A stretch of DNA of 32,000 bases from an uncultured archaeon (GTDB lineage Archaea; Asgardarchaeota; Thorarchaeia; Thorarchaeales; Thorarchaeaceae), in contig CAYHAA010000020.1 in the NCBI GenBank assembly GCA_964354495.1, positions 1-32,000 on the forward strand, in the 5' to 3' direction. Made by a program: the position numbers and the translations under genes. Below, one piece after another: positions 21,935 through 30,549 of the stretch (its first letter is position 1; each line of letters starts with the position of its first letter). The notes beneath the pieces are model-generated. The model was not told where the DNA came from, did no database searches, and saw only the letters and a program-made list of their open reading frames with translations.

Positions 21935-24280
21935 TCAGTCTCCTTCTTTATGTCCTGGATATTCAGCCTGCAGCAGATGTCGTATTCTGGCAGCTATCTT
22001 AGGTCCAACACCTCTCACTTTCTGTAGGCCTTTGGTGTCTTCAGAAAAGGTACGTTCCAATGTGCCAAACTCGGTGAGCAACGCTCTGGATATCACAGTG
22101 TCTATTCCAGGGAATCCTGAGAGTATGTACTCCAAGGTATCTGCATCACCGGCCTTGGTTTCCCCTGATCGAGTACGCAATGGCTTTCTCGATGAGACCT
22201 GTTCAAGATGTGCAATACGATACAGAACATTAGCAGTCTCCTCTGCATTGCGTGTCCAAATCATTGGGACCTGAATTCTGATTGCAATAGACGCCAACGC
22301 TCCGTATATTGAGGCTGGGTTCACACCCCTCAATCCAATAATCTGCTCTCCCTCAATTATCAGGACTGGACGTCGGTAAGCTGAGCGGAGAGCACTCAGC
22401 TGAACGAAGAGACGCCCATCTATGAGTGACTGTATGAAATCGTTCGACTCCTTCCGTTCAACAGCAACATCCTCAGATGCCACATAGTCTGCAATCTCAA
22501 GGCTCTCTCCAGATATTACAACATCCAAACGAGCAAGTTCACGGGCTACCGCAGTGGGCAGTTCTCTCGAGTCCACGATGAGCTTTATCTGCTCAGGTTC
22601 AGTCTTTGGTGCAATTCTGGTTATTGCCTCTGGGGTTTCTTGTGCCTTACTGTTTCTGGCAAAATCCTCAAGACTTGTCTGTTTCTCGCTCTCCTCGGCC
22701 TCTGCCTCTTTGAGAGCCTTTGGCATCCTCTTCAACTTGCTCATCACGCTCCAGTGATAGAACTCATCATGAGTTCCCTTTGCAACGAAAATCACAACTC
22801 TTCCAGGGACTCTTCGTCCCGTTCTCCCCCTCCTCTGGATATATGGGACCACTGAGGGGACACAGTCATAAAAGATTACAAGATTGCACTCTGGGATATC
22901 AAGGCCCTCTTCTCCTACCTGCGTTGCCACAAGTATGTTGAACTCATTGTTCCTGAAACCGTCTAGGACCTCCACCTGTTTCTTCTGACTGAATCCTTTG
23001 TCGGAGCCGCGGGAGCTCTGCCCCACAAAACGGCTCACACGTGCGTCACCTAATTGCTCCAGTGTTTCTGTGACCTCTGCAGCAGTATCTCGGAAACGTG
23101 TGAAGATCAAAATGCGGGAGTCAAGGTTGGCTGACAATTGCTCACTGACAATCTCAAGGACCGCATCAGCCTTCGGATGTCTGTAGTCCTTCGCTATAAG
23201 AGCCTGCAGTAGCTCCTCGAACTGCTTGAACTCTGCTCTCGTGATGAGATCCTTCAATCCCTTGGAGCTCTTCTTGTTACTGATCTCTTCATACATGCCG
23301 CGAATGTATCTCATCGTAGGTGTCAGGCCCTGTGTTCCAATGAACTCTATGAGGTGAGCTATCCTCAAGAGAGCAGTGAGATTTCTAATGACAAGAAAGA
23401 GAGTCCGTGGTGGATTCGTGAATGAACCTATCTCTTTTCGTACTGCGCCCTGTGCCTGAAGTATTTCTTTCCTTGTCAGGCGTCTGCTATCAGGCAGACT
23501 AAAGCCATGATCGACAACGGGTTTTCTATACTCCTCCATAAGCCTATACAATATATCTCGAAGCGCTTCGACTTCTGGGGGTAACCTGACATAGTACACT
23601 TCTGAGTCGACAGATACGATGTAGTCTTTCACATCCTTGCTCTTCTCATCCCTGACCTCAACATGGGTCAGCCTCAAGTTTTCACATACAGCTATGATGT
23701 GCTCTGCCTGATGCCCAGGAGATGCAGTGAGCCCAAGAGACAGTCGATTATGTCCCTGTTTCTCATAGAGTTCCGCAACGAAGGTATATGCATAGTTGCC
23801 GACGCCACGGTGAGCTTCGTCATAGACAATCAATGAAACATTGGAGAGGTCGTAGCTTCTCTGAATCAAATCGTTTTGTAATGCCTGTGGAGTCATCACA
23901 ATGACGCGCGCCTCTTGCCAAGAGGTATGTCTACTCTCTGGGGCATCTTGCCCAGTCAGGCACACGATTTGGTTCTCCTCCAAGTCAAGTACGCGTTTCA
24001 AATAGCGCGCCTGCTGGTCTACAAGAGGTCGTGATGGTGCGAGGAAGAGCACCTTTGAGTCTTGATGCTCTCTTAGACGTCTTGCTGTCAGGAGGGCGGC
24101 AATTACAGTCTTACCCAGTCCTGTGCTCAGCACTATTATTGTGCTCTGGCGAGATGCTATGTCTGCGAGGTCCACCTGATACGACCTATAGTCCAGAGTC
24201 TGGGTCTTGATTAATGGCATCTCGACGTACTTGTCGTATCCAGTCAAAGCTACAACCCCGAAGGATGCATGGATTTCCAT
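21935..24280 (-). CDS. hef: Hef (FANCM/XPF-like) helicase-nuclease: SF2 helicase, ERCC4 nuclease, HhH
   Basis: RSYQ Q-motif, STGLGKT, YDEAH, GLTASPG, QRRGRTGR, then VDSRE...VERKESNDF and GVGPK HhH. Start may be TTG 24247. Confidence 0.94.
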   Translation of the reverse strand: MEIHASFGVVALTGYDKYVEMPLIKTQTLDYRSYQVDLADIASRQSTIIVLSTGLGKTVIAALLTARRLREHQDSKVLFLAPSRPLVDQQARYLKRVLDLEENQIVCLTGQDAPESRHTSWQEARVIVMTPQALQNDLIQRSYDLSNVSLIVYDEAHRGVGNYAYTFVAELYEKQGHNRLSLGLTASPGHQAEHIIAVCENLRLTHVEVRDEKSKDVKDYIVSVDSEVYYVRLPPEVEALRDILYRLMEEYRKPVVDHGFSLPDSRRLTRKEILQAQGAVRKEIGSFTNPPRTLFLVIRNLTALLRIAHLIEFIGTQGLTPTMRYIRGMYEEISNKKSSKGLKDLITRAEFKQFEELLQALIAKDYRHPKADAVLEIVSEQLSANLDSRILIFTRFRDTAAEVTETLEQLGDARVSRFVGQSSRGSDKGFSQKKQVEVLDGFRNNEFNILVATQVGEEGLDIPECNLVIFYDCVPSVVPYIQRRGRTGRRVPGRVVIFVAKGTHDEFYHWSVMSKLKRMPKALKEAEAEESEKQTSLEDFARNSKAQETPEAITRIAPKTEPEQIKLIVDSRELPTAVARELARLDVVISGESLEIADYVASEDVAVERKESNDFIQSLIDGRLFVQLSALRSAYRRPVLIIEGEQIIGLRGVNPASIYGALASIAIRIQVPMIWTRNAEETANVLYRIAHLEQVSSRKPLRTRSGETKAGDADTLEYILSGFPGIDTVISRALLTEFGTLERTFSEDTKGLQKVRGVGPKIAARIRHLLQAEYPGHKEGD

Positions 24281-25495: not shown

Positions 25496-25840
25496 ATGAT
25501 GACTACTACCACTAAGGAGCCAATGCCAAGCATCGAGGCAGAGCTCTACGAGCTGAAGATGCCGGGTCGACTCTTGGGAAAGGAAGTACTTGATAACAGG
25601 GCTCGACGCATTGGCATTGTTAGAAGCATAAGAATCGCCTTGCATCCATTACGCTCCGAGCTCATTGTGAAGGGCGCAGAAGTCGAGTTTCCTGTCGACT
25701 TCTCGAAGGTTGATGCTGTCGGCACTGTGGTACAGCTTAACTCGGTGGTCAAGGATGCAGAAGAGATAGAGGTCCATGATGTCATAAGGCTACAGAAAGA
25801 GGTCCTTGACGACATCAAATCGTGTCTGGGCGGACAGTAG
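25496..25840 (+). CDS. PRC-barrel domain protein
   Basis: LLGKEVLDNRARRIGIVRSI and PVDFSKVDAVGTVVQL fit the PRC-barrel pattern; AAGGAG upstream. Confidence 0.72.
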   Translation: MMTTTTKEPMPSIEAELYELKMPGRLLGKEVLDNRARRIGIVRSIRIALHPLRSELIVKGAEVEFPVDFSKVDAVGTVVQLNSVVKDAEEIEVHDVIRLQKEVLDDIKSCLGGQ

Positions 25841-25910
25841 TTCCACAACAAGGGCATTTCGAAGAGCTTATACAGCTCGGCTGCCTCCTTCCATTTCTGG
25901 AGGCAAATCC

Positions 25911-26732
25911 ATGGTCCTCACTGTTGAACAACTTGCACGGGCTATTGATCACACCGAGCTAAAGCCAGAGGCTAAGCAGAGTAAGATAAAGCAGCTCTGT
26001 GAAGAGGCAATATCGTACAATTTTGCAGCAGTCTGTATCAACCCAGTCCATATTGAGTATGCAGCTCAGCTGCTCAAGGACTCAGCAGTAAAGGTGGCTT
26101 CTGTCATAGGCTTTCCACTCGGAGCTACTCTGTCTGAGGTCAAGGCCATGGAAACTCGTGAGGTCGTGAGGCGGGGGGCAGATGAAGTTGATATGGTGAT
26201 CAACGTTGGCGCCTTGCGTGACGAGAATTACGATCTTGTGCGAAGCGACATAGAAGCGGTAGTTGCAGCCTCTGGCGAGGCTCTTGTGAAGGTCATCCTC
26301 GAGACTGGCCTGCTCACTGATGACCAGAAGAAGAAGGCATGTCTTCTATCCAAGGAGGCAGGTGCAGATTTTGTCAAGACCTCGACTGGGTTTGGACCAA
26401 TGGGAGCGACTCCTTATGATGTCAAACTCATGCGAGAGACTGTGGGTGACTCCATGGGTGTGAAGGCTGCTGGAGGAATCCGTACATTCAAGGAGGCTCT
26501 CCGATTGATAGATGCGGGAGCCAATAGACTCGGAACGAGCTCTGGGATAGGAATCATTGAAGACTACCGATGGGCTCAGTATAGTGAGTCTTGGATGCAG
26601 CCCGACAAACCCTGCTGGACATGCCCGAGTCGCATGGCGAACATAGCGAAACAACCCAAAGAAGTGTATCTCTGGTATAAACAGCGGTGCCTGATGTGTC
26701 CAAACAAGGACCATAATATCTTCACAGAATAG
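25911..26732 (+). CDS. deoC: 2-deoxyribose-5-phosphate aldolase with a C-terminal four-cysteine extension
   Basis: IDHTELKP, VIGFPLG, KVILETG, FVKTSTGF (Schiff-base Lys), GVKAAGGIR, RLGTSS. ATG 25911 behind GGAGG. Confidence 0.95.
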   Translation: MVLTVEQLARAIDHTELKPEAKQSKIKQLCEEAISYNFAAVCINPVHIEYAAQLLKDSAVKVASVIGFPLGATLSEVKAMETREVVRRGADEVDMVINVGALRDENYDLVRSDIEAVVAASGEALVKVILETGLLTDDQKKKACLLSKEAGADFVKTSTGFGPMGATPYDVKLMRETVGDSMGVKAAGGIRTFKEALRLIDAGANRLGTSSGIGIIEDYRWAQYSESWMQPDKPCWTCPSRMANIAKQPKEVYLWYKQRCLMCPNKDHNIFTE

Positions 26733-26744
26733 GAGGAATAACGA

Positions 26745-28544
26745 GTGTCTGATGCATCATCTCAACTATATTCTGAGGCCGAGCTGCTCTTCATCTCCCT
26801 TATTGATAGGACCATCACTCGAAAGCCTCTGCCTCCGGCCCTCTACAAGGAGTACCTCGGTGGTCGTGGTCTTGGTGTGAAGTTGCTCTACGATAATCTT
26901 GCACCGGGTATTGCTCCTCTCTCCCCAGATAACTGGTTAGTCTTTGCAGTGGGCCCATCAACTGCGACATCAGTCCCTACAGGTGGCCGTTTTGTTGTGA
27001 TTACCAAGTCTCCTGCTACGGGAACAATATTCGACTCGAATGCAGGTGGATACTTTGGCGCTCAGTTACGTCGTGCTGGCCTCGCTGCAGTCATCTTCAC
27101 CGGAGCCTCAAAATCACCTGTCTATCTCTGGATCAATGACAATCAGGTCGAGATTCGTGATGCTTCCAAGATCTGGGGCAAGACTACAGACGTCGCGACC
27201 GACCAGCTGATCAAGGAGACCGATGAAAAGGCACAGGTCGCCTGTATTGGTCCTGCCGGGGAGAATATGATCAATCTCGCAGCTATCGTGACTGACAAGC
27301 ACAGGGCTGCGGGTCGTGGCGGCGTCGGAGCTGTGATGGGTTCCAAGAAGCTTAAGGCAGTGGTCGTTCGTGGGACAAGGACTCCTGGCGTTGCTCAGCC
27401 CGAGAAACTGCGAGAGGCAGTAGAACGAGCACGTCTTCTTATCAAGAAGAACCCAGTGACAGACAAATCGTTGCCAGTCTATGGTACTCCAGTCCTTGTC
27501 AGTGTGATAAACGAGGCTGGAATGCTGCCCACTCGTAACTTCCAAGAGGGTAGATTCAATGATGCTGATGGAGTCTCAGGAGAGAAACTGCTAGAGCGCT
27601 TTTCTCTAAAGCCCTACAACTGCTATGGTTGTCCTATTGGTTGTGGACGCATGAGTCGGGTGCGGGGTAAGGATATGGGCGGTCCCGAATTCGAGTCGAT
27701 ATGGGCACTTGGCCCGCAATGCGGAATCAACGACCTCGAATGGATTGCTTTGGCGAACGATAAGTGCAACCTATTGGGAATCGATACAATCTCAGTCGGT
27801 AGTACTCTCGGGTGTGCCATGGAGCTTGTTCAAAGGGGCAAACTAGAGCATTCGCTCAAGTTTGGCGATACGACGGGAGTCCTTGAAATGATTGAAGATA
27901 TCGCTTATGCCCGTGGTCTGGGAGCGGAGCTGGGGAAGGGTTCCAAAGTATTCGCAGCGAATTATGGAGCTCCTGAGCTCGCCATGCAGGTCAAGGGCCT
28001 TGAGATACCAGCGTACGACCCACGAGGTGTGCAGGGGCATGCTCTTGGGTATGCCACATCAAACAGAGGTGGCTGCCATCTTCGGTCCTACATGATTGGT
28101 CCCGAAATCTTGGGAAGCCCCGTGCTAGTAGACCGGGATATAACCGAAGGCAAGGCCGATCTCGTAATCCTGTTCCAGAATCTATCTGCTGCTATGGACT
28201 GTATGGTTGTGTGCAGATTCACGAACTTTGCTTGGACAGTAGACGACTACGCCGCGATGGTCAGCGCAGGCACGGGTCTAAAGATTGATGGCAAGGAACT
28301 ACTTCGCATCGGAGCGCGGATCTGGAATCTAGAGAAACTGTTCAATATACGTGAGGGATTCGGGAAGAGTGATGACGCTCTGCCTCCACGCTTCTCCACT
28401 CCACTCACAGAAGGTGGCTCGAGAAAAAGGGTAGCTCAGATTGATGTAATGCTTCCAGAGTATTATTCTCGGAGAGGTTGGGACAAAGAGGGACGACCTA
28501 CTGGGAAACTGCTGAAGAGCCTCAACATCCCTATCGAAAGGTGA
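26745..28544 (+). CDS. aor: Tungsten-dependent aldehyde:ferredoxin oxidoreductase
   Basis: YLGGRGLG, KSPATG, SNAGG, GRGGVGAVMGSKKLKA, CYGCPIGCG, GPEFES, LGIDTIS, YDPRG, RGGCH. GGAGG SD; starts 12 nt after the deoC stop. Confidence 0.93.
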   Translation: MSDASSQLYSEAELLFISLIDRTITRKPLPPALYKEYLGGRGLGVKLLYDNLAPGIAPLSPDNWLVFAVGPSTATSVPTGGRFVVITKSPATGTIFDSNAGGYFGAQLRRAGLAAVIFTGASKSPVYLWINDNQVEIRDASKIWGKTTDVATDQLIKETDEKAQVACIGPAGENMINLAAIVTDKHRAAGRGGVGAVMGSKKLKAVVVRGTRTPGVAQPEKLREAVERARLLIKKNPVTDKSLPVYGTPVLVSVINEAGMLPTRNFQEGRFNDADGVSGEKLLERFSLKPYNCYGCPIGCGRMSRVRGKDMGGPEFESIWALGPQCGINDLEWIALANDKCNLLGIDTISVGSTLGCAMELVQRGKLEHSLKFGDTTGVLEMIEDIAYARGLGAELGKGSKVFAANYGAPELAMQVKGLEIPAYDPRGVQGHALGYATSNRGGCHLRSYMIGPEILGSPVLVDRDITEGKADLVILFQNLSAAMDCMVVCRFTNFAWTVDDYAAMVSAGTGLKIDGKELLRIGARIWNLEKLFNIREGFGKSDDALPPRFSTPLTEGGSRKRVAQIDVMLPEYYSRRGWDKEGRPTGKLLKSLNIPIER

Positions 28545-28593: not shown

Positions 28594-30549
28594 CTGCCAA
28601 GAGAAAAACACAGTCGCAGGAAGTTCCGAAGAGGACATGCACCCTACTTGACCAAGATTCGGTTCTACTGGTGCGACTCATGCAACGTACCAAGAATCGC
28701 AGAGACAGAGTGCAGCACCTGTGGTACGCTACCAAGGCAGGTAGAGCTGTCACCGCCAGGGGACCCGTTTCCAGCGATGGATGGCCACCTCAAGAGGGCA
28801 ATAGACACGATTGACTCTCAGTTCGGAGATGGTGTGGGACTTGTTTTGCTTCCTACAAGCAAGACGATAGTGATGAATAAGGTGTCCTCGCTGGATGCTA
28901 TGTATGAGATCATTGTGGACGGATACTTGGTTGGCAGATTACGATTTGATATTGAAAAACACGGATACACCTTTCTCCTTGCTATTGAAGGAGCTCGTAG
29001 AATCGGTGCAGTCAGTAGGCAGAAGTGGGTCTCTATCCATGACGGTGTTCTGAAATATCTGAGAGATGGAGCGAATCTGATGCTCCCTGGTGTACAGGGC
29101 TGTGACTCAGGGATAGAGGTGGATGACGAAGTCTGGATTGTCGGCTCAGATGGTGTTGTCCTCGGCAATGGCATTGCACGAATGAGCGGTGCTGAAATGG
29201 CGAAAGAGAGCAAAGGATTCGCAGTCAAGATTCGCGAGGTTTCCAATCCTACCCCTCCGGCAGAGAATACAGTCGAATCGACGTGGGATGATGCTGTCGC
29301 GGCGAATCTGAATAATCTTGTCAGAATCGAGGAAGAGGCCGTTTCTTTTGTCAGACGTGTCGTCGAAAAGAACAAGGGTCTTCCTGTTGTTGTAGGCTTT
29401 AGCGGAGGAAAAGACTCTCTCGTAACCTATCTTGTCGTGGAGAGAGCAATAGGAGAGAGCCCCCCACTCTTCTTCATGGATACAGGCCTTGAGCTCCCTG
29501 AAACCATCGAATTCATTCGCAGGTTCGCAGAGGGGCGAAATGTACGAATCATTGGCGAGAAGGCTGGAGACCGATTCTGGCAATCTTTGGACGTCTTCGG
29601 TCCGCCGGCCAGAGACTTTCGTTGGTGCTGCAAGGTTCTCAAACTGGGGCCAGCAGCCACATCAATTGCTGCAGAGCTCGGTAGCGAGACCCTCTCCTTC
29701 ATGGGTCAGAGAAAGATGGAGTCTTTCCAGAGATCCGTAGAACCCAGAGTCACAGAGAATCCGTGGGTTCCTGGGCAGATTTCAGCCAACCCGATACAGA
29801 ATTGGAACGCTCTTGAGGTATGGCTGTACACATTCAAGATGAGGGCTGACTTCAACCCGCTCTATACCAAGGGCTATCACAGAATGGGCTGCTACTTATG
29901 TCCTGCATCGCCGCTTGCTGAACTGGAGAGTCTACGTCAGACCCATCCTGAGCTCTACAAGCAGTGGGATGAGAAGATGAGAGAGTGGGCTGGGCGGTAC
30001 GGTTTTCCAGAGGACTGGTTTGAGCTAGGGTTTTGGCGCTGGAAGAACCTGCCAAAGGGGCAGCTCGAACTTATCAACCGACTTGGCTTGAGTATCACTC
30101 CCGCACGACAGAGCCCTGGAGAGAAAATCGAGCTCAACATCACAAAAGGAGTATCCCCATGCACCAAATCTGGTTTCAGTCTTGAAGGCTCCTTCTCAGC
30201 TGGTATTGATCTTAGCAGAATTTCAAAAATCATGCCCATATTCGGGAGTACGAAGGTCTCTGAGGAACTTGGCGCCCTTCGAACAACATCTGGAGAGAAC
30301 CATATTGCGTTCTTTAGCTCTGGTTCTGTGGTCGTGCGTGGCCCCGATGAGCGTACTGTGGAATGTCTTGCTAAGCAATTGGAGCGTGCGACTCGGAGGG
30401 CTCTTCTCTGTCAAGCATGCGGTTCCTGTATCCCACAGTGTGACCAGGGTGCTCTATATCATGATAACGGAAAGATTGCCGTGGACGAAGACAAGTGCAT
30501 TAACTGCCTTGAGTGCGACAAATGGCCTTGCCCTACATATCTGACTTAG
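28594..30549 (+). CDS. Zn-ribbon + PUA + PAPS-reductase-like (PP-loop) + ferredoxin-like multidomain Fe-S protein; probable CTG start at 28594 (ORF track: TTG 28648)
   Basis: WCDSCNVP..CSTCG; PUA region (GANLMLPGV...VDDEVWIV...GNGIARM); FSGGKDS; RWCCKVLKLGP; RMGCYLCP; C-terminal CQACGSCIPQC and CINCLECDKWPCP. Confidence 0.88.
   Translation: MPREKHSRRKFRRGHAPYLTKIRFYWCDSCNVPRIAETECSTCGTLPRQVELSPPGDPFPAMDGHLKRAIDTIDSQFGDGVGLVLLPTSKTIVMNKVSSLDAMYEIIVDGYLVGRLRFDIEKHGYTFLLAIEGARRIGAVSRQKWVSIHDGVLKYLRDGANLMLPGVQGCDSGIEVDDEVWIVGSDGVVLGNGIARMSGAEMAKESKGFAVKIREVSNPTPPAENTVESTWDDAVAANLNNLVRIEEEAVSFVRRVVEKNKGLPVVVGFSGGKDSLVTYLVVERAIGESPPLFFMDTGLELPETIEFIRRFAEGRNVRIIGEKAGDRFWQSLDVFGPPARDFRWCCKVLKLGPAATSIAAELGSETLSFMGQRKMESFQRSVEPRVTENPWVPGQISANPIQNWNALEVWLYTFKMRADFNPLYTKGYHRMGCYLCPASPLAELESLRQTHPELYKQWDEKMREWAGRYGFPEDWFELGFWRWKNLPKGQLELINRLGLSITPARQSPGEKIELNITKGVSPCTKSGFSLEGSFSAGIDLSRISKIMPIFGSTKVSEELGALRTTSGENHIAFFSSGSVVVRGPDERTVECLAKQLERATRRALLCQACGSCIPQCDQGALYHDNGKIAVDEDKCINCLECDKWPCPTYLT

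Follow-up and report, generated by a model that had tools for sequence, protein, structure and literature searches.

In an uncultured Thorarchaeota archaeon, the deoxyribose-5-phosphate aldolase (DERA) encoded by the deoC gene carries a C-terminal module with four cysteines. This module is real and conserved, is confined to DeoC, and has been inherited and lost jointly with a dedicated clade of tungsten-type aldehyde:ferredoxin oxidoreductases (AOR). We tentatively read this tail as a zinc-stapled tether, which would attach DeoC to AOR for the hand-over of acetaldehyde. The window, i.e., the whole stretch of DNA that was analysed, is 32,000 nucleotides long, and all positions below refer to it unless a locus or contig is named.

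The deoC gene and its four-cysteine tail

The features of the window on which the argument depends are the following:

25899 to 25903, forward strand: ribosome-binding GGAGG motif of deoC, ending 7 nt short of the ATG (read in the sequence)
25911 to 26732, forward strand: deoC, ATG start, 273 codons plus TAG (26730-26732)
25929 to 26558, forward strand: core TIM barrel of the class I aldolase DERA, with the Schiff-base Lys in FVKTSTGF (TIGR00126, 1.3e-86)
26559 to 26729, forward strand: C-terminal tail of 57 aa (residues 217-273), of no known family
26613 to 26624, forward strand: first knuckle, C235-W-T-C238, inside a conserved P-C-x-x-C-P, invariant in alignments
26649 to 26681, forward strand: KQPKEVYLWYK stretch, conserved, the sole part of the tail that is also kept in the Cys-less tails (family f8)
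26688 to 26699, forward strand: second knuckle, C260-L-M-C263, invariant in alignments
26715 to 26729, forward strand: last residues N-I-F-T-E, a free N-x-F-x-D/E end that the aligned AOR-linked tails retain
26732 to 26736, forward strand: ribosome-binding GGAGG of aor, whose first base is also the final base of the deoC stop (read in the sequence)
26745 to 28544, forward strand: aor, tungsten-type aldehyde:ferredoxin oxidoreductase of 599 aa, GTG start, in the DeoC-linked AOR clade

The ATG at 25911 agrees with 27 homologues, which all begin MxLT in the alignment; a TTG further upstream (25806) was considered as the start and is disfavoured by these homologue starts and by the GGAGG that precedes the ATG. 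The gene is the sole DERA gene of the source genome (97.7% complete). Just upstream of it lies an open reading frame of 114 aa without a Pfam match (25496-25840, forward strand), and in another Thorarchaeota genome a frame of 111 aa, also without a Pfam entry, occupies the same place (L004:5464-5799). A Hef-like helicase-nuclease gene is also found upstream of deoC (21935-24280, reverse strand), its Pfam families being taken from the orthologue in L004.

The barrel is that of an ordinary enzyme. The TIGR00126 (deoC) profile covers residues 7-216 (profile positions 1-210 of 211; 289 bits for a cut-off of 117.3 in the NCBIfam scan) and Pfam DeoC (PF01791) covers residues 10-212 (81.7 bits, cut-off 23.8). 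A sequence search of the PDB gave 5dbu, 6d33, and 3ngj as the best solved relatives of the barrel, with an E-value of 1e-77 for 5dbu across residues 8-217. Residues D94, K127, K156 (in FVKTSTGF), and K185, presumably the catalytic Asp and Lys residues of DERA, are invariant in 28 DeoC sequences and were aligned with the solved 5dbu. In the AlphaFold2 (AF2) model of the whole protein, the barrel has a pLDDT above 90. Judged by these matches, DeoC is a complete short-type class I DERA, metal-independent and a putative aldolase, having its full barrel in common with the other members of this type (TIGR00126; 5dbu, 6d33, 3ngj, 1mzh). However, solved DERAs align to residue ~217-222 of DeoC and end within a few residues there and, like typical DERAs, they stop a few residues past the last helix, whereas the protein of the window runs on for 57 residues that include the Cys4 module. 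Since TIGR00126, Pfam DeoC, and the solved DERAs all end before it, the segment 217-273 is an appendage.

An earlier note, made from the letters of the window, had described this appendage as a C-x2-C-x21-C-x2-C metal-binding module. Its motif and span (26613-26699) are exact to the base, with the Cys codons at 26613-26615, 26622-26624, 26688-26690, and 26697-26699. The tail is also where the note had placed it, except that the start given there, 26560, misses the reading frame by one base, E217 beginning at 26559; in addition, the peptide that it quoted misses D218, which is a trivial slip.

A word-indexed search with the tail alone retrieved 37 protein clusters. All of them have a Pfam DeoC domain and, with three exceptions, a length of 271-275 aa; the tails are 63-97% identical, and the clusters with a source name are all DeoC proteins of Thorarchaeota. 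In an alignment of 28 proteins from Thorarchaeota and Hermodarchaeota, the four Cys are invariant, together with R220, W221, D232, P234, W236, P239, S240, R241, P249, K250, V252, Y253, Y256, K257, N269, and F271, and the mean column identity is 84% in the tail and 79% over the whole protein. Among the Cys-bearing tails, the four Cys, the x21 spacing, P239, Y253, and K257 stay invariant down to ~30% tail identity. Indeed, C-x2-C-x21-C-x2-C was found in every Cys-tailed genome lineage examined, while a metagenomic protein, P0044, has an x19 spacer. A scan of named genome records gave 58 tail loci, exclusively from Thorarchaeota, Hermodarchaeota, 'Promethearchaeota', or unnamed archaeal MAGs. The tail appears from these alignments to be under purifying selection. 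Hence, the four Cys, whose conservation the earlier note had proposed to check, and their spacing hold in lineages with tails only 28-37% identical, and its main claim, a conserved appendage of Cys4 metal-binding type on a normal class I DERA, is supported at the sequence level.

The tail matched no described domain in the searches made. Searched alone against Pfam and NCBIfam, it gave only noise; a tail profile found nothing below E = 1 in the PDB; and a feature search of the ESM Atlas returned no usable match. Its pLDDT is 54-64 within the whole DeoC. A tail-only AF2 model, built from 37 diverse sequences, reaches 67.6 overall and ~80 across residues 244-263, and contains one helix (residues 250-261, low confidence) between the knuckles. 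This model had no Foldseek match, and the wide VIA-align search gave a best Z of 2.8, i.e., helical noise, for a model whose pLDDT is only 67.6. Zinc ribbon and rubredoxin-like modules also have two CxxC knuckles with conserved spacing; however, neither a profile nor a fold match relates the tail to them, and it is a helix, not beta hairpins, that is modelled (at low confidence) between its knuckles.

When 1.84 billion cluster representatives were searched exhaustively with an HMM of the tail, ten matches came up. Seven of them are true, and all seven are C-termini of DeoC or short fragments of them. Three apparently stand-alone tail proteins (P0041, P0042, and P0049) come from contigs of 532-676 bp, and P0049 still includes the end of the barrel, starting within its last helix; we regard all three as fragments rather than a split form of the enzyme. 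A search for shorter proteins yielded no candidate for a free-standing tail. Moreover, we found no paper describing a tailed DeoC in the literature searched. The statement of the earlier note that no DeoC with this appendage had been described is thus borne out across Pfam, NCBIfam, the PDB, and this literature, and the tail would represent a domain family not yet described, carried by a known enzyme.

Distribution of the tail across Asgard families

We searched 400 genomes of the phylum of the window, 201 of which have a DERA. A tail profile built from Thorarchaeota only matches 93 of the 400 genomes and a diverse tail profile 128. In the window's own family, f1 (Thorarchaeota), 65 of 85 genomes have the tail; it is present in 13 of 19 genomes of f14 (Hermodarchaeota), 9 of 22 of f11, and all 31 of f8, and in one or two genomes each of f3, f5, f6, f7, and f22. 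The tails of f11, f22, f7, f5, f6, and f3 are ~28-42% identical to that of the window and keep P-C-x-x-C-P, the x21 spacer, Y253, K257, and the second CxxC.

Family f8 is a case of its own. Its 31 genomes all match the diverse profile and the tail is homologous (W-F ... KKQPKEVYDYY), but all four Cys are gone in the five loci read; the Cys-less tail ..YSWGAADPKKQPKEVYDYY.. is found at L041:4082-4897 (reverse strand), L043, L044, and L045 (genomes G015, G011, G038, and G020). There, deoC adjoins mutS, not aor. In the DeoC tree, the five f8 rows nest among Cys-tailed rows (95/91). Such a joint loss of all four ligands, with the rest of the tail kept, is the pattern expected of a structural zinc site. 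Ribosomal proteins, which have Cys-containing and Cys-less forms of zinc ribbon modules, offer a comparison.

The DeoC tree also places tail-less proteins. Those of genera g8 and g11 and of the Hermodarchaeota genus g42 fall inside the tailed clade of Thorarchaeota and Hermodarchaeota, and those of g2, g13, g14, and g15 form a separate lineage at the same genomic site. Because tail-less DeoCs survive in the same clade, the barrel does not need the tail to persist. In some genomes of family f11 (L047:4133-5563 on the reverse strand, L048, and L049), a second DeoC copy forms the C-terminal domain of a larger protein (~476 aa), the first ~258 residues of which have no Pfam match; this copy has neither a Cys tail nor an adjoining AOR.

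Linkage with the neighbouring aor gene

In the window, aor begins 12 nt after deoC and its product matches AFOR_N (E = 3.9e-78) and AFOR_C (E = 4.1e-137) of Pfam. All tail-bearing loci examined from f1, f14, f11, f22, and f7 are arranged similarly, with AOR beginning 10-55 nt after deoC, and so is the locus of the metagenomic P0044. A link between deoC and encapsulins, DeoC being associated with A-domain encapsulins in Thermococcales (PMC8346489), was considered and dropped, the gene after deoC here being AOR. The source genome (G000, 3.3 Mb) has eleven genes of the AOR family, the deoC-linked one being at most 40% identical to the others, and one of the paralogues (C19:52950-54773) sits in an open frame of 1220 aa.

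Within f1, the tail and the AOR orthologue are both present in ten genera (g1, g3-g7, g9, g10, g12, and g16) and both missing from six (g2, g8, g11, and g13-g15). In all 12 tail-less loci examined from these six genera, deoC is directly followed by the gene for a PUA-PAPS-reductase protein, which in the window lies downstream of aor (28648-30549, forward strand). This gene therefore marks the site where the segment made of tail and aor is present or absent. No AOR exceeding 40% identity to that of the window, a level equal to that of the ten AOR paralogues of the source genome itself, was found in five tail-less genomes that are 83-99% complete. Among the Thorarchaeota and Hermodarchaeota loci examined, none has kept the tail after losing aor. 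Moreover, in a tree of 20 DeoC-linked and 20 unlinked AORs of the same subfamily, a single split separates the two sets (95/91, and 97% of bootstrap trees). Tailed deoC and aor thus appear to be one evolutionary cassette, which was probably gained or lost as a unit two to four times. These events seem to be few (two to four) and the lineages related, hence not independent. The co-loss is in itself only weak evidence of functional coupling, because the tail-coding segment and aor are contiguous and a single deletion removes both. One Thorarchaeota genome, G381, had looked like a case of DeoC-AOR fusion (L160, C238:5800-9400); the locus has a deletion from the barrel end through the tail into the aor start and the two frames differ, so that it is not a fusion but either a misassembly or a broken deoC.

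The tail is also found away from AOR. In f5, f6, and f3, the Cys4 tail has no adjoining AOR, the neighbours being a helicase, an NTPase, and a triosephosphate isomerase; these genomes carry AORs of 46-54% identity elsewhere, in G005 ~10 kb off on the same contig. The AOR subfamily itself is common in Asgard genomes without a tailed DeoC. With f5, f6, and f3 unlinked and f8 both unlinked and Cys-less, the core of the tail does not depend on zinc or on gene linkage. The co-occurrence with aor that the earlier note had put forward as a check is seen as gene adjacency in Thorarchaeota, Hermodarchaeota, f11, f22, and f7, and not in f3, f5, f6, and f8.

Some residues follow the linkage. W221 is invariant in linked tails and missing from all unlinked ones, and all 28 aligned linked tails share the free N-x-F-x-D/E end, which no unlinked tail has, two features that were noticed post hoc and that may be due to shared descent. 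The f6 tails keep Y-N-x-F but run on for three or four residues, and P0044, which has AOR downstream, has the variant end Y-R-K-F-K-D-F. On the AOR side, residues 268, 276, 281, 481, 491, 501, and 560 are each shared by at least 90% of the 20 linked AORs and by at most 10% of the 20 unlinked ones. These positions, three of which cluster at 268-281, are candidate partner-contact positions.

A physical contact was also addressed by complex prediction, using AOR (28-row alignment), the 60-residue tail (matched rows), and Zn. The ipSAE values were 0.41, 0.32, and 0.11 (median 0.32), the best of three controls being 0.00, which was graded as weak support; at least 69% of the contacts agree between runs and the partner pLDDT is 44-57. 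In the calibration, whose counts are only rough here owing to the custom alignments and the ligand riding along, 58 of 80 solved complexes scored high enough to pass, as against 2 of 110 mismatched pairs. At an ipSAE of 0.60 or below, only 7 of these 80 complexes passed, plus both mismatches, so that a pass at a low score is wrong in most cases, unless the pairing was already likely. The prediction is thus a small push towards docking of the tail on AOR, no more. The docking suggested by the earlier note gains circumstantial support from the joint presence and absence of tail and AOR orthologue across genera, from the single linked clade, and from this weak fold pass, and it suffers from the tails that persist without an adjoining AOR and even without Cys.

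Possible functions of the tail

The reading that we prefer would make the tail an Asgard-specific mini-domain, added at the C-terminus of a normal class I DERA. Its two CxxC-P knuckles would clamp a short helix (KQPKEVYxWYK), most likely by means of one structural Zn ion. The tail, in its linked form with W221, R241, and the free N-x-F-x-D/E end, would then tether DeoC to the tungsten AOR that the following cistron encodes. The acetaldehyde freed by the aldolase would immediately be oxidised to acetate, and ferredoxin would be reduced. Its removal would pull the reversible aldol cleavage forward and would spare DERA from inactivation by its own product, acetaldehyde being known to inactivate this enzyme (PMC6244999, PMC8403123). 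Four elements of this scheme are what we infer: that the module binds a metal, that this metal is zinc, that the tail physically binds AOR, and that acetaldehyde is channelled.

Assemblies of a comparable logic have been described. DmpFG and BphIJ are aldolase-dehydrogenase complexes, encoded by adjacent genes, which channel acetaldehyde; as proposed for deoC-aor, an aldolase that releases acetaldehyde is paired with an enzyme that oxidises it. However, the enzymes are not homologous: DmpFG and BphIJ associate a class II pyruvate aldolase with an acylating NAD dehydrogenase, and deoC-aor encodes a class I DERA and a tungsten AOR, whose complex or tunnel would be putative. DUF35, the zinc-ribbon scaffold of the archaeal thiolase/HMG-CoA synthase complex, is likewise a small Cys4 module that joins two consecutive enzymes and passes on an unfavourable intermediate, in likeness to the proposed tether; it differs in being a separate protein with an OB fold, while the tail is fused to the first enzyme and has no sequence match to it.

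The tail could instead be intrinsic to DeoC, i.e., a zinc-stapled element (zinc-free in f8) that stabilises the oligomer or folds over the active site, the link with aor being only shared inheritance. We regard this as the main rival, somewhat less likely than the tether, and several observations argue for it: the core motif persists in f5, f6, and f3 and, Cys-less, in 31 of 31 f8 genomes, all without a linked AOR, the tail ends in a conserved aromatic-acidic motif, and one deletion explains its co-loss with aor. A precedent for such an element exists in E. coli DERA, which has a mobile C-terminal tail with Tyr259 (PMC8403123). That tail also lies beyond the barrel, has an aromatic residue at its end, and could reach the active site; it is however short, disordered, metal-free, and unrelated in sequence, whereas the tail described here is long, has a Cys4 module, and is dispensable in close relatives. 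The terminal Tyr of the E. coli enzyme is absent here, the protein of the window ending in F-T-E and some relatives in F-Y-D. The dispensability weighs against an intrinsic role, tail-less DeoCs being kept intact inside the same DeoC clade, and in Thorarchaeota and Hermodarchaeota no locus retains the tail once aor is gone. Moreover, the context of the barrel gave the tail no higher AF2 confidence (54-64 in the whole protein, 68 alone), and the C-terminal motif and W221 follow the linkage to AOR, which an intrinsic role does not predict.

A different use of the four Cys, which we consider improbable, is that they bind iron in a rubredoxin-like manner or form a thiol switch, the tail carrying electrons of AOR or gating the aldolase by redox state. 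Two CxxC knuckles in an aromatic-rich segment of ~50 aa, beside a ferredoxin-dependent and oxygen-sensitive enzyme, would suit such a role, and sequence alone cannot tell Zn from Fe. However, neither rubredoxin nor any other Pfam family matches; both knuckles are CxxC-P, not the CxxCG or CPxCG of rubredoxins; the spacer has 21 residues, not ~29; and the f8 tails, devoid of the four Cys with the rest maintained, follow a structural rather than a redox pattern. Redox sensing, which the earlier note had listed, found nothing in its favour, and neither did its suggestion of nucleic-acid binding. The latter, by which a nucleic-acid-binding or regulatory zinc finger would give DeoC a second role, is very improbable: small Cys4 modules often bind nucleic acids and the tail has several Lys and Arg, but the module was found on no protein other than DeoC, neither sequence nor fold searches matched it to a known finger, and it has a distribution that follows a metabolic partner gene. 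Finally, an artefact, i.e., a lost stop codon or a frameshift having fused a small reading frame onto deoC, has a negligible chance, as no evidence was found for it, and the same 273-aa reading recurs in dozens of independent assemblies with the tail under apparent purifying selection. The assembly error envisaged in the earlier note is thus excluded, the same architecture being present in 37 clusters and 93 genomes from independent assemblies.

Coming back to the tether, we favour, with somewhat less than even confidence, the view that the Cys4 tail holds together a dedicated DERA-AOR assembly of Asgard archaea in which acetaldehyde would be handed straight to the tungsten enzyme, i.e., a non-homologous archaeal counterpart of DmpFG built on an undescribed domain family. 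In a rarer variant of this DERA-AOR tether, the site may bind iron and relay electrons from AOR.

DERA has been studied in depth and serves as an industrial biocatalyst; its main weakness lies in its inactivation by acetaldehyde (PMC6244999, PMC8403123). If the tether is true, a natural DERA wired to a partner that removes the aldehyde shows how cells handle the acetaldehyde problem. The tail itself is a small new domain family (~57 residues, four Cys) that is easily tested, with tail-less and Cys-less natural controls in sister lineages. For Thorarchaeota, Hermodarchaeota, and related archaea, the deoC-aor pair would constitute a conserved, ferredoxin-reducing route from deoxyribose (of necromass DNA) to acetate, as predicted from their genes.
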